From: Actinomycetota bacterium
Lineage (GTDB): Bacteria > Actinomycetota > Acidimicrobiia > Acidimicrobiales > CAIXPF01
DNA: 64,000 nucleotides
NCBI GenBank assembly: GCA_034211175.1
Contig: JAXHUH010000073.1
Location: 1-64,000 of the forward strand
Direction of reading: 5' to 3'
The notes under the pieces are model-generated. The model was not told where the DNA came from. It worked only from the letters and a program-made list of their open reading frames with translations, and ran no database searches. This document shows positions 7,893 to 37,478 of this stretch, piece by piece. Position 1 is the stretch's first letter. Each line of letters starts with the position of its first letter. A program made the translations under genes and the position numbers.

Positions 7893-8987
7893 GTGTTCGA
7901 ACCCCGCGACCCCGCCTACCCGGAGCTGAAGAAGACCCACACCGCGGCCCGGGTCGGTCGCCCGTGGACCGACTACAAGCCGCCGCCCGCCGCGCCGGTC
8001 TGGGGTGTGATCGAGGGCCTCGGCCGCTACCACACGCTGTGCGCGGCGCTGGAGCTCGGGGTGTTCGACGCCATCGAACGCATCGGACCGTGCGACGCCG
8101 CCGGGCTGTCCGCCGAGCTCGACGTCTCGGCGACCCACCTCGAGGCGCTGGTCGACGCGGTCGTGGTCATGGGCCTGCTCGACCGGGTCCACGGCCGCTA
8201 CGAGCTGAACGACACGACCCGGCGCTACCTGGTGACCGACGGGCCGGCGTCGATGGCGTCGCTCGTGCCGGTGGCGCCCGGCCCCCACGAGAACTGGGGC
8301 CGCCTGGCCGACACCGTGCGCCGGGGCCGCCCGGCGACCCCGATCGAGGACGACCCGGCCGCCTTCTACGTGCCGCTCGTCGAGGGGACGTTCACGACCA
8401 CGTTCCGCACCGCGAGCCGGGCCGACCTGAAGATGCGCTACTCGGCGCTGCGGGCGCCCCGGGTGCTCGACCTCGGCGCCGGTGGTGCGCCGTGGGCGAT
8501 CGCCGTGCTCTCCGCGGTGCCGGACGCGACCGCGGTGGTCAACGACCTGCCCGGTGTCGTGGGTGTTGCCGAGGCGAAGCTGGCCGAGCACGGGGTCGCC
8601 GACCGGGCGGAGGTGCGCGCCGGGGACTACTTCGAGATCGCGATCGAGGACGACGCCTACGACCTCGTCGTGCTCGGCCACCTGTGCCGGGCCGAGCCGC
8701 CCGTCGGCGCCCGCCGGCTGATCGACCGGGCGTTCCGGGCGCTGCGCCCCGAGGGGCGGATCGTGCTCTCCGACTACTTCGTGAACGCCGACGAGCTCGG
8801 CGCCAACCCCCACGCCGTGCTCATGGGCACGACCGTGATGGCCAGCACGGCCGCCGGGCGCTGCCACTCCCACGCCGACATCTCCGGCTGGTTGGCCGAC
8901 GCCGGCTTCGAGGCCATCCGCCTGATCGAGCCGATCGGCTTCCAGCAGGCCTACGTCGCCACCAAGCCGACGGCCGACCTGCACTGA
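7893..8987 (+). CDS. class I SAM-dependent O-methyltransferase (Methyltransf_2 with N-terminal dimerisation domain)
   Basis: 364 aa. Dimerisation-domain-like N-terminus and SAM motif (VLDLGAGGAPWAIAVL). Confidence 0.85.
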   Translation: MFEPRDPAYPELKKTHTAARVGRPWTDYKPPPAAPVWGVIEGLGRYHTLCAALELGVFDAIERIGPCDAAGLSAELDVSATHLEALVDAVVVMGLLDRVHGRYELNDTTRRYLVTDGPASMASLVPVAPGPHENWGRLADTVRRGRPATPIEDDPAAFYVPLVEGTFTTTFRTASRADLKMRYSALRAPRVLDLGAGGAPWAIAVLSAVPDATAVVNDLPGVVGVAEAKLAEHGVADRAEVRAGDYFEIAIEDDAYDLVVLGHLCRAEPPVGARRLIDRAFRALRPEGRIVLSDYFVNADELGANPHAVLMGTTVMASTAAGRCHSHADISGWLADAGFEAIRLIEPIGFQQAYVATKPTADLH

Positions 8988-31290: not shown

Positions 31291-33822
31291 TCAGCGCCAG
31301 AAGGTGCGGCGCCGCGTGCCGGTGTCCGACGGCCCGCCGTCGCCGGTCCCGTTGGTGTCGCCTGCGTCGTCGGCGAAGGCGTCGATGGCGGCGAGGGTGG
31401 CGCGATCGTCGCCTGCCGTCCCGGTCGTCCACGCCGTCGCGGCGTCGACGATCGCCCGTAGGCGATCGACGAGCCCCGCCGTCGCGCCGACCGACGTCAG
31501 GTCGTCGACGAGGAGCCGCAGCCGGCCGATCGCCCTGCGGGCCTCGTCGCGATCGCCGCCGGTGATCGCGGAGCGGAGCGCGGCGAGCTCGTCGTCGATC
31601 CGGTCGCGGTAGCGGGCCTCGGGCGGGTTCGCCGGCTCCTCGCGGCGGGCGCCGTCGGATCCACGGTCGCCGGCGGCCTCTCGTGCCGGGCGCCGCCGCA
31701 GGGCCCTGCCCAGGCGGCCGCCCGTCGCCTCGAGGTGGAGGGACGTCTGTGCTGCGGGCGGGGGCTGTGGCGACGCGAACGCGACGAACCCGTCGCCCGC
31801 GGCCGGTGATGCGGCGGCCGGCGCCGAGGCGACGAACGCCCGCATCGGAGGTGACGGTGGCGCCGCGGATGCCTGCTCCCAGCCGGAGGGCAACTCGACC
31901 GGCTGGACGATCCTCGCCGGGTCCGTCGACGACGTGCGCTCGGTGGTGTCGACGGCCAGGTACGCAGTGAACCGGCTGAGCACCCCGAACTGCAGCGAGG
32001 TGGCGATGATCCGGTCGGCCAGCCCGGCGTCGGGGCGCACGGCGTGGGCGTCCTCGAGATCCCGGACGCGGGCTCGGGCCCACATCGCGTGACCGGCCCG
32101 GTCGTCGACGCGGCAGGCGACCTCGGCGGTCCACGGGTCCCCGAGCTCGTCGGTCGCCGCCAGCGTGACCGTCGCCGGTGGGCGGCCCCGGTAGCGGCCG
32201 GCCACGACGAGCGGCACCCCTTCGAAGCAGTCGGCGCGGCCCGGGGTGGTGTCGTCGGCGACCACGTCGAAGCCGCCGCTCCCGGGTTCGCCGGCGTCGT
32301 GGTCACCGGCGTGGATGGTGAGGTCGCGCAGGACGGGTCGGGCGATGCGACGGTGGAGCGCCGTCATGACCTCGTCGAGGCGGTCCTCCGATTCGACGAG
32401 CTCGCACCGCCCGGCGCCGGCCGCCGCGAGGCGCCGGAGGAAGCCGGCGTTGACGGCCCGGTCGATGCCGACGGTGAACAGCCGCGCCGAGCCGAGCTTC
32501 GGGTCGAGCCCGGCGAGGATCTGGTCCTCGTTGCCGACCTGGCCGTCGGTGACGACCACGACGACGGCGTCCCGGTCACCGGACTCCTCGAGCGGCGCGA
32601 CGGCCTGCGTGAGCGCCGGCAGCATCTGGGTGCCACCCCGGGCGTCGAGGCGGGACAGGAACTCGACGGCCGCGTAGCGGTTCCGATCGGTGGCGGCGAC
32701 GAGCCCGTCCTGGTCGGGCGGGGTCTCGCACACGTGGTCGAACGCGACCACGGCGAACCGGTCGGTGCTGCGCAGCGAGTCGACGATCCGGGCCGCGGCA
32801 CGGCGGGCGGCGACCATCTTCCACCCCTGCATCGAGCCCGACCGGTCGAGGACGAGCACGACGTCGCGGGGCCCCGAACCCGTGGCCGCCGGTGGCACGA
32901 CCGTGGCATACCAGGTCCCGGTCCCGCGGTCTCCCGCGTCGCCGGCGCCGGGCTCGTTCACGTGGTCGGCGGCCGTCGTCGGCGTCGCGGTGTCGGGGGT
33001 GCACGTGACCCCGGTGGTGATCGTGTCGCCCCCGATCCCGAACCGGAGGACGAAGTCCCGGTCGACCCGCTCGCCGGGGCGCAGCTCGACCCGCATCGGC
33101 CCGGTGCCTGCCCCGTCGGTCATCACGACGTCGTGCAGCGCCGACCGCAGCCCACGGAGCCCGAGGTCGTCCGCGTCGATCGTCACGCCGACGGACAGGC
33201 GCACCGGGTTCGGGGAGCCCGGAAGGAGGACCGGGGGCGAGATCGTCGATGCGTCGGGCACCGCGTCGGTGTCGTCGGTGGTCCCGCCGGCGACGTTCGG
33301 CCCGTCGAGCGGGCTGCCGGGGACGTACCGGGGTGCGGTCACGAGCGGGAAGCGGAACGTGGCCTCGGCGCCGTCGACCGGGAGGCGCCACTCGAGATCG
33401 AGCTCGACGACCGCGGTCTCGCCCGGCCCGATGTTGCCGACCCGCATGGAGAACGTGTCCGGCCGGTTCTCCTCGGCGATGGCGGCGCGACGGCCCTGCT
33501 CGATCGCCTCGTCGTAGCCGGCCCGGGCCGCGGCGCGCTCCATCAGGGTGCCGTCGACGACGCGGTCGGCCACCGTCATGCGGAACCGGGTGACCGCGGC
33601 ACGGTCGGGGAGCGGGTGGAGGTAGGTGGCCTCGATCGCCCGGTCGAGGCGGTTCTCGAACGTCTGGCGCACCCGGACTCGGGCGACGAGGCCGGCGATG
33701 TGGCCGTCGACGTCGAGCGCCACCAGCGGCAGCGCCCCCTCCTCGGTCCGCAGCTCGCTCGGTGTGTCGCTCCAGGGCTCGTCGAGCTCGTCCGGTCGCA
33801 TCGTCGGGACGGGTGTGGTCAT
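31291..33822 (-). CDS. VIT (vault/inter-alpha-trypsin) domain + von Willebrand factor type A domain protein, 843 aa
   Basis: N-terminal VIT-like region, then a vWA domain with intact MIDAS (VLVLDRSGSM...GGT...VVVVTDGQVG), then a long Ala/Pro-rich C-terminal region. The ATG overlaps the stop of the upstream MerR gene as ATGA (33819-33822). Confidence 0.8.
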   Translation of the reverse strand: MTTPVPTMRPDELDEPWSDTPSELRTEEGALPLVALDVDGHIAGLVARVRVRQTFENRLDRAIEATYLHPLPDRAAVTRFRMTVADRVVDGTLMERAAARAGYDEAIEQGRRAAIAEENRPDTFSMRVGNIGPGETAVVELDLEWRLPVDGAEATFRFPLVTAPRYVPGSPLDGPNVAGGTTDDTDAVPDASTISPPVLLPGSPNPVRLSVGVTIDADDLGLRGLRSALHDVVMTDGAGTGPMRVELRPGERVDRDFVLRFGIGGDTITTGVTCTPDTATPTTAADHVNEPGAGDAGDRGTGTWYATVVPPAATGSGPRDVVLVLDRSGSMQGWKMVAARRAAARIVDSLRSTDRFAVVAFDHVCETPPDQDGLVAATDRNRYAAVEFLSRLDARGGTQMLPALTQAVAPLEESGDRDAVVVVVTDGQVGNEDQILAGLDPKLGSARLFTVGIDRAVNAGFLRRLAAAGAGRCELVESEDRLDEVMTALHRRIARPVLRDLTIHAGDHDAGEPGSGGFDVVADDTTPGRADCFEGVPLVVAGRYRGRPPATVTLAATDELGDPWTAEVACRVDDRAGHAMWARARVRDLEDAHAVRPDAGLADRIIATSLQFGVLSRFTAYLAVDTTERTSSTDPARIVQPVELPSGWEQASAAPPSPPMRAFVASAPAAASPAAGDGFVAFASPQPPPAAQTSLHLEATGGRLGRALRRRPAREAAGDRGSDGARREEPANPPEARYRDRIDDELAALRSAITGGDRDEARRAIGRLRLLVDDLTSVGATAGLVDRLRAIVDAATAWTTGTAGDDRATLAAIDAFADDAGDTNGTGDGGPSDTGTRRRTFWR

Positions 33823-34511
33823 CGTGTCCGCCTTTCGGGGCCGCTCGCTGCTGTGGCGTCGGGGTCGTCGTCTCGGAGGAGCCCCCGGGCGCGCAGCTCG
33901 TCGAGGAGCTGGTGGGCCGCGGCTGTGACCGCGGCGCCATCGGCCGTGGTCGGCATGCGCCCGGCCGGGAAGCTCAGGTGGACCCCGGGCGCCAGTTCCA
34001 CGGCAGCCAGCACCGGGGTCGTGTCCTCGGCGGGGGTCGTGTCCTCGTCCACGGGGGCCGGCGTCGCAGCCCAGAACGCGGCGGACCGGTGCGTCGGTCC
34101 CGCGGGCGCGGGTTGGCGCGGCGTGGGCTGCGGCACCGGTTGCCGCGGACGCGCCTCGGCGGACGCGGCCCTCGTGGCCGTCGTGGCCACGGCCCCGATG
34201 GCGGCGAGCTCCCGGTCGGTGCGGCCGACGAGGCGCTGCTGGATGTCGCCCAGCGCGACGTCGTCGGCCTGGAGCCGCTTGATGGCCAGCACCTGGAGCA
34301 CGTGGCGCTCGCCGTAGAGCGCCGTGCGGCCCCGGTGGGACACCGGCGGGTCCAGGAGCCCGAGCGTGCGGTAGTAGCGCAGCGTCCGCTCGGTCGGTGC
34401 GGCACCGTTGCCGTCGGGCGCGCGCAGATGCCGACCGACCTGCCGCACGAGCTCGTCGATCGTGAACGTCGCCCCGTCCGGCGCTGATGCTGATCCCGGC
34501 GTCGTTCCCAT
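33819..34511 (-). CDS. MerR family HTH protein, Cys-free, with Pro-rich linker and ~90-aa C-terminal domain
   Basis: MerR HTH (FTIDELVRQVGRHLRAPDGNGAAPTERTLRYYRTLGLLDP) with an unusual insertion in the recognition region. There are no cysteines. Translationally coupled (ATGA) to the VIT-vWA gene. Confidence 0.8.
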   Translation of the reverse strand: MGTTPGSASAPDGATFTIDELVRQVGRHLRAPDGNGAAPTERTLRYYRTLGLLDPPVSHRGRTALYGERHVLQVLAIKRLQADDVALGDIQQRLVGRTDRELAAIGAVATTATRAASAEARPRQPVPQPTPRQPAPAGPTHRSAAFWAATPAPVDEDTTPAEDTTPVLAAVELAPGVHLSFPAGRMPTTADGAAVTAAAHQLLDELRARGLLRDDDPDATAASGPERRTR

Positions 34512-34612: not shown

Positions 34613-34849
34613 TCAGTGTCGGGTCGGCTCGGTTGTGTCCGGAGCGGGGTCGCCGTCGCCGCGGCCGCTCCGCCGTCGGGCCGCGGCACGTGCCCCGACG
34701 ACGATGAGCACGCCGAGTACGGCGATGACCGGACCGCCGGCGCGATCGAGCGCCGCCCCGACCCCGACCCCGACCGCGGCGAGCAGCGGCCCCGCGCAGC
34801 ACGCCAGGCATCCGACTGCGCCGAGGGCGGCGAGCCGCCGCCCGCTCAT
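34613..34849 (-). CDS. small two-helix membrane protein with MerT/MerF-like vicinal-cysteine helix (78 aa)
   Basis: MSGRRLAALGAVGCLACCAGPLLAAVGVGVGAAL resembles MerT TM1 (…SPCCWLPLLAVALGVSGAWL…), followed by a second hydrophobic helix. The ATG overlaps the upstream regulator's stop as ATGA (34846-34849). Confidence 0.55.
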   Translation of the reverse strand: MSGRRLAALGAVGCLACCAGPLLAAVGVGVGAALDRAGGPVIAVLGVLIVVGARAAARRRSGRGDGDPAPDTTEPTRH

Positions 34850-35622
34850 GCGGGGACCCCGAAGACCGCGTCGACGAGCTCTGCGGCGTCGGACGGGGTC
34901 CGCACCTCGAGCGCGACGCCGCGGTGGTCGACGGTGATGGTGAAGGCGAAGAACGTGCAGCACGCCTGCTCGGCCACGACCAGGCGGGTCAGCTCGTCGA
35001 TCGGTGCCGCCGGGACGAGCTCGAGGCGGAGGCCTCCGTCGTCGGTGCGGGACCGGTGGCGCACGTGGTCGAGGAACCGGCCCCAGTCCGCAGCGCGGTC
35101 GGGGATCTCGTCGGCGGACAGGGTGCAGGTGATGGCCGGGTCGCCCGTGGTCCCGAGCGGCACCCCCGTCGGCCGGACATCGTCGGCGTCACCGCCGTCG
35201 GATCGGCACCCGCACCCGGCGCTCATGCACGCGCACCCCTCGTCGCACGGGCCGTCGATCGGTGCGCCACCGAGGCGGGCGGCCGCGGTCTGCAGCTGCG
35301 CCGTGAGCCGCACGAGCTCGGCGCTGCGGGTGCGGGCATCGGCGATCTTGGTCGTCACCAGCGCGTGGAGCCGGGCCTGCACCGGTTCGCACTCGTCGCT
35401 GTCCCACAGCTCGACGAGGTCGGCGATCTCCTCGAGGCTGCACCCGAGCTGCTTGGCCCGGGCGATGAACCCGAGACGCTGCAGCGAACGATCGTCGTAG
35501 AGGCGGTAGCCGGCGTCGGTGCGCCCGGCCGGCTCGAGGAGGCCGTGCTGCTCGTAGTAGCGCAGCGTCGAGGCCGGGAAGCCGCTCCGCTCGGCGACCT
35601 GGCTGATGGTGAACGAGGCCAT
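34846..35622 (-). CDS. MerR family regulator with Cys-cluster (GPCDEGCACMSAGCGCRS) and C-terminal ~110-aa domain bearing a CC motif (EQACCTFFAF)
   Basis: MerR HTH at the N-terminus (FTISQVAERSGFPASTLRYYEQHGLLEP), then a coiled coil and the Cys cluster. The second domain is of unknown family. Confidence 0.75.
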   Translation of the reverse strand: MASFTISQVAERSGFPASTLRYYEQHGLLEPAGRTDAGYRLYDDRSLQRLGFIARAKQLGCSLEEIADLVELWDSDECEPVQARLHALVTTKIADARTRSAELVRLTAQLQTAAARLGGAPIDGPCDEGCACMSAGCGCRSDGGDADDVRPTGVPLGTTGDPAITCTLSADEIPDRAADWGRFLDHVRHRSRTDDGGLRLELVPAAPIDELTRLVVAEQACCTFFAFTITVDHRGVALEVRTPSDAAELVDAVFGVPA

Positions 35623-35677
35623 GGGGCGACGGTAGACCTTCGACCCGACTCGAAGGTCAAGGCCCGGTCGCCATCCC

Positions 35678-36000
35678 TCAGCGCGACGCGTACATGATCA
35701 CGGCCACGCCGACGAGGCAGATGGCGGCGCCGGTGAGGTCCCAGCGATCCGGTCGGAAGTCGTCCGCGACCACGCCCCAGGCCAGCGAGCCGGCGACGAA
35801 GATCCCGCCGTAGGCGGCCAGGACCCGCCCGAAGTGGTCGTCGTCCTGCAGCGTCGCCACGAAGCCGTAGGCCCCGGCAAGCTGAACGCAGCTCGACCGG
35901 AGGGCGCAGCCCGACGGCGAGCGAGGCTCAGCCGATCTCCGCGAGCGCGGCGAGGACGAACAGGGCGAGGGAGCGGCCGACGGGCACGTCGCGACCGTAG
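35678..36000 (-). pseudogene. ynfA: ynfA-like (UPF0060 small membrane protein) gene disrupted by an in-frame TGA and a frameshift (~20-nt internal deletion)
   Basis: Frame B encodes …[14 protein letters not shown] then TGA. Frame A encodes the rest ([67 protein letters not shown]). Both halves match the UPF0060/YnfA family order. This could also be an assembly error. Confidence 0.5.
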
Positions 36001-36029: not shown

Positions 36030-37478
36030 TCAGTCGCGATGCCTGGGCGCGCGGACGTGGAGGGGGTGGCCGAGGGCGCCGTGGGCGGCTTCGGCGATGG
36101 CCTCGGCGAGCGTCGGGTGGGCGTGGATCGTGCCGGCGACGTCCTCGAGCGTGGCGGCCATCTCCACCGCGAGCGCGGCCTCGCCGGCCAGCTCGGCGAC
36201 ACCGGGCCCGACGAGATGGATGCCGAGGACCGTGCCCTCGGCGTCGGCGACGATCTCGGCGTGGCCGAGGTCGCGACCGAGCGACAGCGCCCGACCGTTG
36301 GCGGCGAACGGGAACCGGAACGTGGTCAGCTCGGCGGTCGCTCCCGCCGCGTCCTCGCCGTCGCGATCGCCGTCGGGCCTGACGCCGACGCTGACGACCT
36401 CGGGGTCGCAGAACACGACCTGGGGGACGGCAGCGGGGGAGAACGCCGCCGGTTCGCCGCACGCAGTGGCCGCGGCGACCTCGGCCTCGGCCGTCGCCTT
36501 GTGGGCCAGCGCCGGGCCGGCGGTGACGTCGCCGATGGCCAGGATCGTCGGCGCCGCCCGGCGGTCCGGACCGACCGGGATGTAGCCGGCGCCGTCGACC
36601 TCGACACCGACCCGGGCCAGGCCGAGATCGTCGGTGTTGGGCCGCCGGCCCACCGCCATGAGCACCACCTCGGCAGCCAGTCGATGCTCGGTCCGGTCGT
36701 CGTCGCCATCGTCGCCCGCCACCTCGCGCACGACGAGGTCGGGACCGTCGAGCCCGGCGGCGGCCGTGCCGGTGAGCACGGTGACCCCGAGCTGACGCAG
36801 CCGGCGGGCAACCACCCGGCCGAGGCTGGCAGCCATCCCGGGCAGGAGCCGGTCGGCTGCCTCGACGATCGTGACCTGCGCGCCGAGCTTCGCCCATGCC
36901 GTGCCCAGCTCGAGGCCGATGTAGCCGCCACCCACCACGACGAGGCGCTCGGGCACACGGTCGAGTCGCAGGGCGGCCGTCGAATCGATGACCCGGGTCC
37001 CGTCGAACGGCAGCATCGCGAGCTCGACCGGGCGGGACCCGGTGGCCACGATGGCCTGGGAGAACTCGACGTGGGTCACCCCCTCGCCGTGGACGACCGC
37101 GGCGCGGTCGGCGCGGCTGAACCGGGCCGTGCCCTCGACGACGGTCACGCCGGCGCCGTCGAGGAGCTGGCGCACGCCACCGGTGAGCCGGCCGACGACG
37201 GCGTCCATGTGCTCGCCGACCCGGGCGAGGTCGACCTCGGCCGACACGTCGACGCCCCACGAGCCGGCCTCGTGCGCGAGCGCCGCCGTCTCGGCCACGT
37301 GGATCAGCGTCTTCGACGGGATGCAGCCGACGTTGAGGCACACCCCGCCGACGGCGTCGCGCTCGACCAGGGTCACCGACCGGCCCCGCTCCGCGACCCG
37401 GAGCGCGGCGGCGTAGCCGCCGGGACCGCCGCCGATGACGAGCACGTCGGTGGAGGTCGCGAGCTCGCCGACGACCAC
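36030..37478 (-). CDS. lpdA: dihydrolipoyl dehydrogenase (E3)
   Basis: 482 aa. FAD motif [11 protein letters not shown], redox disulfide [13 protein letters not shown], and C-terminal [11 protein letters not shown] start. Confidence 0.92.

Follow-up and report, generated by a model that had tools for sequence, protein, structure and literature searches.

A predicted MerF/MerT-like membrane hairpin with a CxxCC signature in a MerR-associated, reductase-free gene module of Actinomycetota

The stretch of DNA analyzed here, referred to below as the window (64,000 nucleotides in full), carries a gene for a 78-aa micro-protein in which a first-pass annotation had recognized a membrane helix with a vicinal cysteine pair like that of the mercury importers MerT and MerF. 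No mercuric reductase partner had been seen beside it, and the locus raises the question of what such a protein could do where merA is missing. The import of Hg(II) without its reduction would be harmful, which counts against reading the product as a mercury carrier; the annotation had preferred either a relic or a protein handling a different thiophilic cargo. The features on which the following analysis is based are collected in Table 1.

Table 1. Coordinates of the module genes, their parts, and the control region in the window.
Feature	Coordinates	Strand	Basis
Micro-protein CDS, 78 aa	34613..34849	(-)	ORF and translation; family HMM match over 34640-34849, E = 3e-11
Family signature codons C14-L-A-C17-C18-A-G-P21 (CxxCCxGP), helix 1	34787..34810	(-)	Conservation in 121 sequences
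MerR-family regulator/three-Cys fusion, 258 aa	34846..35622	(-)	Pfam MerR_1, MerR, MerR-DNA-bind
DNA-binding and dimerization part of the MerR regulator (residues 1-125; conserved C61, C78)	35248..35622	(-)	HMM match
Sensor loop C126-x3-C130-x-C132 (DGPCDEGCAC)	35227..35247	(-)	Cys fractions in homologues
C-terminal three-Cys domain, residues about 152-257	34852..35169	(-)	
MerR-type promoter/operator	35629..35660	(-)	Inverted repeat, conserved upstream of the regulator gene
-35 element TTGACC	35660-35655	(-)	
Perfect inverted repeat GACCTTCGA-N6-TCGAAGGTC in the 20-nt spacer	35635-35658	(-)	
-10 element TACCGT	35634-35629	(-)	
ynfA (UPF0060, SMR-like exporter) pseudogene	35678..35987	(-)	Pfam match limited to profile positions 41-106

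Although the DNA of the window has a high GC content (70–77%), the micro-protein frame is a genuine gene and not a high-GC artefact, because its codon-position GC is 0.85/0.67/0.85, with a minimum at position 2 in no other frame, its ATG overlaps the TGA of the upstream regulator gene (ATGA, 34846–34849), an identical micro-protein is annotated in a public MAG (P0001), and the family numbers at least 664 homologues. The NCBI label of the window protein is "hypothetical". Its translation is MSGRRLAALGAVGCLACCAGPLLAAVGVGVGAALDRAGGPVIAVLGVLIVVGARAAARRRSGRGDGDPAPDTTEPTRH, and the stretch quoted in the first-pass annotation does lie in it, at residues 10–34. Hydropathy and an AF2 model (pLDDT 68.7) placed two helices at residues 3–32 and 39–62, and the mean numbers of K/R residues across the family were 2.4 at the N-terminus, 0.04 in the loop, and 4.0 in the first ten residues of the tail. 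The micro-protein is predicted to be a two-helix membrane hairpin with N-in/C-in topology, because positive charges are concentrated at both termini throughout the family; the membrane character proposed earlier was thus borne out by topology prediction. The vicinal pair noted in helix 1 is also present (C17/C18), but a third cysteine had been overlooked, and it is C14/C17 that is invariant throughout the family. Beyond C18, the window protein is free of cysteine, its tail being RRRSGRGDGDPAPDTTEPTRH; it has a shortened helix 2 and is the most divergent of the members sampled (44 bits against the family HMM vs. 60–132 bits). A second short-form member, P0122, is 56% identical to it.

The family was collected by way of the conserved neighbor gene, whose adjacent homologues were aligned and used in a profile search. 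With the micro-protein sequence alone, a word-indexed search returned the query as its sole match, and an exhaustive phmmer search returned four relatives and one low-complexity match. A scan of genome contigs with the whole regulator produced mostly generic MerR genes, of which only the loci L006–L008 were useful, while a scan of metagenomes with the hairpin profile confirmed six loci and no more. The profile search gave at least 664 proteins of about 78–105 aa (E ≤ 0.01), with the consensus AAACVACCAGPILA. Among the 121 aligned members, C14, A16, C17, and P21 were invariant and C18, A19, and G20 were conserved in at least 90%. The CxxC motif occurred in 121/121 sequences, a third cysteine in 119 (with Tyr in the other two), and a proline no more than four residues further on in all 121, so that the cysteine motif on which the earlier comparison depended is indeed a conserved property of the orthologues. 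The three thiols, spaced i, i+3, and i+4, would lie on one face of helix 1. A single cysteine in the tail was found in 68 of the 87 long forms; of the 34 short forms, three had a tail cysteine. No Pfam or NCBIfam model covers these proteins, several of which are named "mercuric ion transport protein" by JGI. Judged by its sequences, the family is widespread, hitherto unnamed, and belongs to no curated family.

Taken alone, the window micro-protein matched no MerT, MerF, MerC, or MerE model (Pfam at E ≤ 1; NCBIfam), and nothing was obtained beyond a sub-threshold match to DUF7269 and one to MerT_CopZ_Se at E = 0.65. When the 121 members were scanned singly, 49 matched Pfam MerT, all under the curated cutoff; the best of these matches (E = 5.8e-6, 26.8 bits vs. 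a cutoff of 32.9) spanned residues 11–81 of the protein and positions 13–82 of the 116 in the profile. In NCBIfam, 69 members matched MerT (best E = 1e-5), 41 matched MerTP, and 8 matched merT_RC607, again all below the cutoffs. These counts alone are no proof, because an actinobacterial holin family, a composition-driven model, was matched about as often (67/121), and the MerT signal may in part be hydrophobic bias. MerF was absent from the 25 models most matched by the family in the Pfam and NCBIfam scans. A profile search of the PDB with the hairpin family recovered no MerF entries, its matches being confined to the hydrophobic tails of hydrogenase small subunits, and a Foldseek comparison of the AF2 model of the hairpin with the PDB gave no match.

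Profile–profile comparison with hhalign aligned the family with MerF at a probability of 84.4% (E = 7e-6, 49 columns, score 36.0; best of 150 column shuffles 22.0, reversed alignment 18.0) and with MerT at 54.8% (E = 1.2e-4, 37 columns, score 31.3; best of 150 column shuffles 23.5, reversed alignment 21.5). It should be noted that the MerF probability of 84% lies under 95%, and that the reference alignments of MerT and MerF were small and were taken from annotated plasmid records, with five sequences in the case of MerF; the Tn501 MerT and pMER MerF sequences were 100% identical to the annotated genes. For both references, the CC pair of the family stood in register with CC, and the MerF alignment extended from this pair across helix 2 into the basic cluster. 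The hairpin family may consequently be regarded as a distant relative of MerF and MerT, or at least as one that appears to have the same helix-1 design in register. The likeness to MerT and MerF claimed in the first-pass annotation therefore stood at the level of the family, whose hhalign scores exceeded those of all 150 shuffles, but not for the single sequence, which matched no model. The string with which the window protein had been compared is not that of Tn501 MerT, whose actual sequence is ASTCCLGPLVLVALGFSGAWIG; the CCxGP of Tn501 MerT fits the CCAGP of the window better than that string did.

The absence of a mercuric reductase in cis was confirmed. The 64 kb encode a single class-I flavoprotein disulfide reductase (36030–37478); it scored 448 bits as a dihydrolipoyl dehydrogenase (cutoff 409) and 289 bits as MerA (cutoff 454), and it adjoins an ORF for an E2 acyltransferase. 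In the 64-kb window, tblastn with flavoprotein probes detected no further reductase, a regular-expression search detected no GMTCxxC metal-binding motif, and no MerP was found. Neither merA nor merP occurred within about 8 kb of the hairpin in any of the 17 distinct loci carrying it (0/17). Having no merA nearby is thus normal in this family and presents no paradox. One candidate was rejected: a 449-aa flavoprotein encoded near the module in locus L001 is glutathione-reductase-like (324 vs. 283 bits) and is devoid of the C-terminal Cys pair. A gene of the MerB family was found beside the module in two of the 17 loci, L078 (8744–9300) and L094 (10891–11502; PF03243), 0.5–2.6 kb downstream and with the catalytic Cys-Asp-Cys; in L094 it comes after an ArsR-like gene and a methyltransferase gene. 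These two neighbors are the only hint towards mercury. Another set of transporter genes with no reductase adjacent was seen on the Pseudomonas putida plasmid pNY5709-IMP (L083, 2528–3859), where the genes of a "GDCCVxC domain-containing (seleno)protein" and then of a Tn3 transposase come after annotated merR-merT-merP and the stretch examined contains no merA.

The constant company of the hairpin is of a different kind. The HMM search over the examined loci placed the hairpin gene immediately after the gene of a special MerR regulator in 17 of 17 distinct loci, the two genes overlapping by 4 bp in most of them. This Cys-rich regulator with its fused domain, the decisive part of the context, had gone unnoticed in the first-pass annotation. 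A three-Cys domain is fused to this regulator in 11 of them, namely, in the window, in L001, L004, L006, L071, L072, L075, L077, L091, and L093, and in one JGI contig known without its DNA, for which the fusion was inferred solely from the regulator length of 254 aa. In the remaining six loci (L007, L076, L078, L079, L080, and L094), the domain is encoded by a separate downstream gene. The three-Cys domain accompanies the hairpin in every locus that could be checked by sequence, and because it occurs both fused and free, the regulator, the hairpin, and the domain are probably functionally linked. A module of this composition was not found described in the literature searched, which covered YnfA with MerR, CxxCC, and MerH or actinobacterial transporters.

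Several loci depart from the regular arrangement. In L007 (9947–11087) and L078 (7551–9300), the module genes lie in three frames or are split, probably through indel errors in the MAG assemblies, and these two loci were taken for gene order only. In L005 (3623–4747) and L008 (6862–8608), ynfA and the regulator with the three-Cys domain were present and the hairpin gene was not detected, so the module can lose its hairpin. In L001, as also in L002 and L003, two genes of tyrosine recombinases lie upstream (1036–3326 in L001) and a gene of a TrwC-type relaxase lies downstream (7974–8756). Between the recombinases and the relaxase, L001 contains a second, CadR/ZntR-like MerR gene and that of the glutathione-reductase-like flavoprotein. 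The regulator protein of the L001 element was found on 35 contigs, and it is probable that the module is carried there on an integrative mobile element.

For the regulator, over 1000 homologues with lengths near 250 aa were found. In the 120 fused homologues compared, each of its five cysteines was conserved in at least 99% of the sequences (fractions of 1.00 for C61 and C78, and of 1.00, 0.99, and 1.00 for C126, C130, and C132, respectively), and the cysteines of the sensor loop, with the motif DGPCxxGCxC, were found also in five unfused homologues. An extra C-G-C just past the CxxxCxC loop of the window protein (residues 137 and 139; 35204–35212 (-)) was present in 1% of the 120 homologues. 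The closest relative of solved structure was the Hg-MerR of Bacillus (4ua1, E = 1.8e-14), followed by CueR and CadR, and the alignment to 4ua1 placed C78 at the start of the dimerization helix, near C79 of Hg-MerR. The scores against the equivalog models were 91 bits for ZntR (cutoff 168), 88 for CueR (147), and 75 for MerR (151); since none of the cutoffs was reached, the metal is not assignable from the regulator sequence. The three-Cys domain comprises about 110 aa with invariant C166, E218, C221, C222, F224, and F227, and no Pfam or NCBIfam family corresponds to it. Where it is free, it forms a separate 119-aa gene directly after the micro-protein gene, and the free form was related to the window fusion with BLASTP E-values of 4e-12 and 1e-10. 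It appears to be a new, cytoplasmic domain.

Upstream of the regulator gene, the element cTTGACCTTCGAgtcgggTCGAAGGTtTAcgGT was common to all 14 aligned loci, with the start codon 6–8 nt further on; in the window, the ATG lies six nt past the -10 element. A standard sigma-70 scan with spacers of 16–18 bp found no promoter, which is the expected outcome for a promoter of the MerR type. The architecture is that of a promoter activated by a MerR-family protein and implies that the regulator and hairpin genes are co-transcribed in an autoregulated operon, while its mRNA is probably leaderless, because only six nt separate the -10 element from the ATG. The operator element occurs once in the window (0.03 occurrences expected by chance), and, consequently, its local targets are the regulator, the fused domain, and the hairpin only.

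The usual upstream neighbor of the module is ynfA, which lies beside the regulator gene in roughly half the loci, in either a co-directional or a divergent orientation, and is served by a separate TAnnnT promoter that lacks the operator. YnfA has been reported to act in Shigella as an efflux transporter of the SMR type (PMC9295541). According to three-frame translation and DNA alignment with the intact copies of L001, L091, and L075, the window copy carries an in-frame TGA (GGC in the relatives) and has lost 19 and 1 nt in two deletions. The inactivation looks recent, because the C-terminal two thirds of the sequence are still well conserved. On the other side of the module, some 100 nt beyond the end of the micro-protein gene, an atypical MerR-like protein of 230 aa without a Cys-rich loop is encoded at 33819–34511 (-) (MerR_1, E = 3e-11), followed by a von Willebrand A-domain protein at 31291–33351 (-); these two look like a conserved pair of their own, with no relation to the module.

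The reading preferred here, to which a probability of roughly 0.6 is assigned, is that the hairpin is a functional protein, distantly related to MerF and MerT, in a MerR-induced thiolate relay for soft metals. A soft (thiophilic) metal or metalloid would bind the regulator and induce the operon, the C14/C17/C18 cluster of helix 1 would bind the ion, and the ion would pass between the hairpin and the three-Cys domain through an exchange of thiol ligands, for which the model is the handing of Hg(II) by MerT or MerF to the N-terminal domain of MerA. The end point might be delivery to the sensor, with a gain in sensitivity, buffering in the cytoplasm, or a hand-off for export; it would not be reduction, because there is no reductase. 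For export, the candidate would be YnfA, the often adjacent exporter of the SMR type, whereas a fused domain, as in the window, would offer the most direct route to sensing. With three thiols at every one of its three stations, the relay would be suited to Hg(II), Cd(II), Pb(II), or As(III)/Sb(III). The points counted against the relay are the sub-threshold scores of the single sequence, the equally frequent matches to the holin model, the MerF probability of 84%, the missing second Cys pair, the lack of merA and merP, the dead ynfA, and the divergence of the window member. A narrower "import-to-sense" form of the relay is possible but doubtful: the hairpin would pass the soft metal or metalloid straight to the three-Cys receiver, here fused to the transcription factor, giving a reductase-independent readout of metal in the envelope or outside the cell, with a cargo preferring three-thiolate coordination, e.g., Pb(II), Cd(II), As(III), Sb(III), or Hg(II) derived from organomercury.

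The single operator copy and its short list of targets also agree with a role in signaling rather than transport, in which the hairpin would be a membrane tether or co-sensor that docks the three-Cys domain, and with it the fused regulator, and releases or activates it once the hairpin thiols are occupied. The fusion of the domain to a DNA-binding protein in most loci (11/17) and the lack of any enzyme or pump under the operator, ynfA having a promoter of its own, fit this idea; nevertheless, we consider it unlikely, as the domain is free in 6/17 loci, so that tethering of the regulator is no general role, the regulator already owns a complete set of metal-sensor cysteines, and the hairpin resembles carriers (MerF and MerT) and no known anti-activators. 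Quite unlikely, too, is a relay of thiol redox or electrophile chemistry, in which CxxC and the Cys-rich partners would exchange disulfides or be alkylated and would sense oxidants or thiol-reactive compounds instead of a metal. It is true that the invariant pair has CxxC, the classic redox spacing, rather than the vicinal CC, that some members of the MerR family sense redox state or electrophiles, and that the regulator weakly matches the SoxR and NmlR models. Metal-sensor models, however, score far higher (ZntR 91, CueR 88, and MerR 75 vs. SoxR 41 bits), and the MerB neighbors in two loci point to mercury chemistry. Moreover, the regulator carries a cysteine at the start of the dimerization helix, which marks the sensors of divalent metals in the MerR family.

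Decay from a mer operon stripped of merA, the relic of the first-pass annotation, would account for the absence of merA from 64 kb, for the adjacent ynfA pseudogene, and for the lowest family score and shortened helix 2 of the window member. It is very improbable, since the merA-less module is kept in 17 distinct loci with its Cys motif, 4-bp overlap, and operator, and since the reading frame, the start overlap, and the operator of the window are intact and a second short-form member (P0122) exists. In addition, dN/dS was below 1 in all pairs tested, a result of little weight given the saturation of the synonymous sites. Translational coupling, an intact operator and promoter, and family-wide conservation all speak for a working gene, the relic is not supported, and decay is limited to ynfA. 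Finally, a Tat or lipoprotein signal (RR ... AVG-C) with a secreted peptide beginning at a lipidated C14, suggested by the N-terminus MSGRRLAALGAVGC of the window protein and by weak matches of 4/121 members to the TAT_signal model, is hardly credible, because the twin arginine is not conserved (K-D-G in many members), position -3 is Ala and not Leu, at least 16 hydrophobic residues continue past C14 as one long helix like that of MerT and MerF, and positive charges stand at both ends.

The handling of soft metals is poorly described in Actinomycetota, above all in those uncultured Acidimicrobiia that are dominant in many soils and waters. The module considered here as a soft-metal relay is compact, with ten conserved cysteines, a clean operator, and fused and free arrangements that point to physical interaction. 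Identification of its inducer would provide a new and very small metal-responsive switch for biosensors and a new soluble metal-binding fold, and it would be a test of whether hairpins of the MerF/MerT type serve in sensing or buffering instead of feeding a reductase. The automatic label "mercuric ion transport protein" on genes of such hairpins does not mean mercury resistance.

Among known systems, MerF (NF033565, Transport_MerF, 81 aa) is the best profile–profile match of the hairpin family. The two are alike in a length of about 80 aa with two membrane helices, in a Cys cluster of helix 1 followed by Pro, in a basic stop-transfer cluster after helix 2, and in the cytoplasmic position of both ends, which is predicted for the hairpin. 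Unlike MerF, the hairpin has an extra invariant cysteine three residues ahead of the pair (CxxCC) and no vicinal Cys pair at the C-terminus; the second Cys pair of MerF and MerT is required for transport. Most of the annotated merF genes examined directly precede merA, but the hairpin gene never stands beside merA or merP; the family belongs to Actinomycetota, while MerF is found in Proteobacteria or Firmicutes.

MerT (PF02411, NF010314, 116 aa) is the specific model most often matched by members of the family (69/121). CCxGP is common to both, with C17-C18-A-G-P21 of the window in register with C24-C25-L-G-P of MerT in the hhalign alignment, and so is the Gly-rich continuation of helix 1 (CCAGPLLAAVG in the hairpin and CCLGPLVLVALG in MerT). 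The C76/C82 pair on the cytoplasmic side of MerT has no counterpart in the window protein. With MerC (PF03203), whose motif reads GCAACFP, the hairpin has in common a first helix in which cysteines of CxxC spacing precede a Pro, and 6/121 members weakly matched the MerC model; MerC, however, is a protein of four helices and about 140 aa from proteobacterial mer operons with merA. In the number of helices, the hairpin, with two, differs from MerT and agrees with MerF, which have three and two membrane spans, respectively (PMC3466566).

As in mer operons of the Gram-positive type, the regulator gene of the module comes first, is co-directional with a transporter-like gene, and is read from one promoter with a long spacer, here of 20 bp; merR is known in both orientations in mer operons (PMC3466566). 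Unlike these operons, the module has the hairpin or the three-Cys domain as its last product, with no merA, merP, or merB under its operator. The regulator differs from Hg-MerR in the CxxxCxC spacing of its sensor loop. The role postulated for the three-Cys domain, that of a soluble, Cys-bearing partner in ion exchange, is the one played by the N-terminal domain of MerA (NmerA) and by MerP. Set against all of these systems, the CxxCC signature on a MerF/MerT-like hairpin, together with a set of partners free of reductase, appears to be new.
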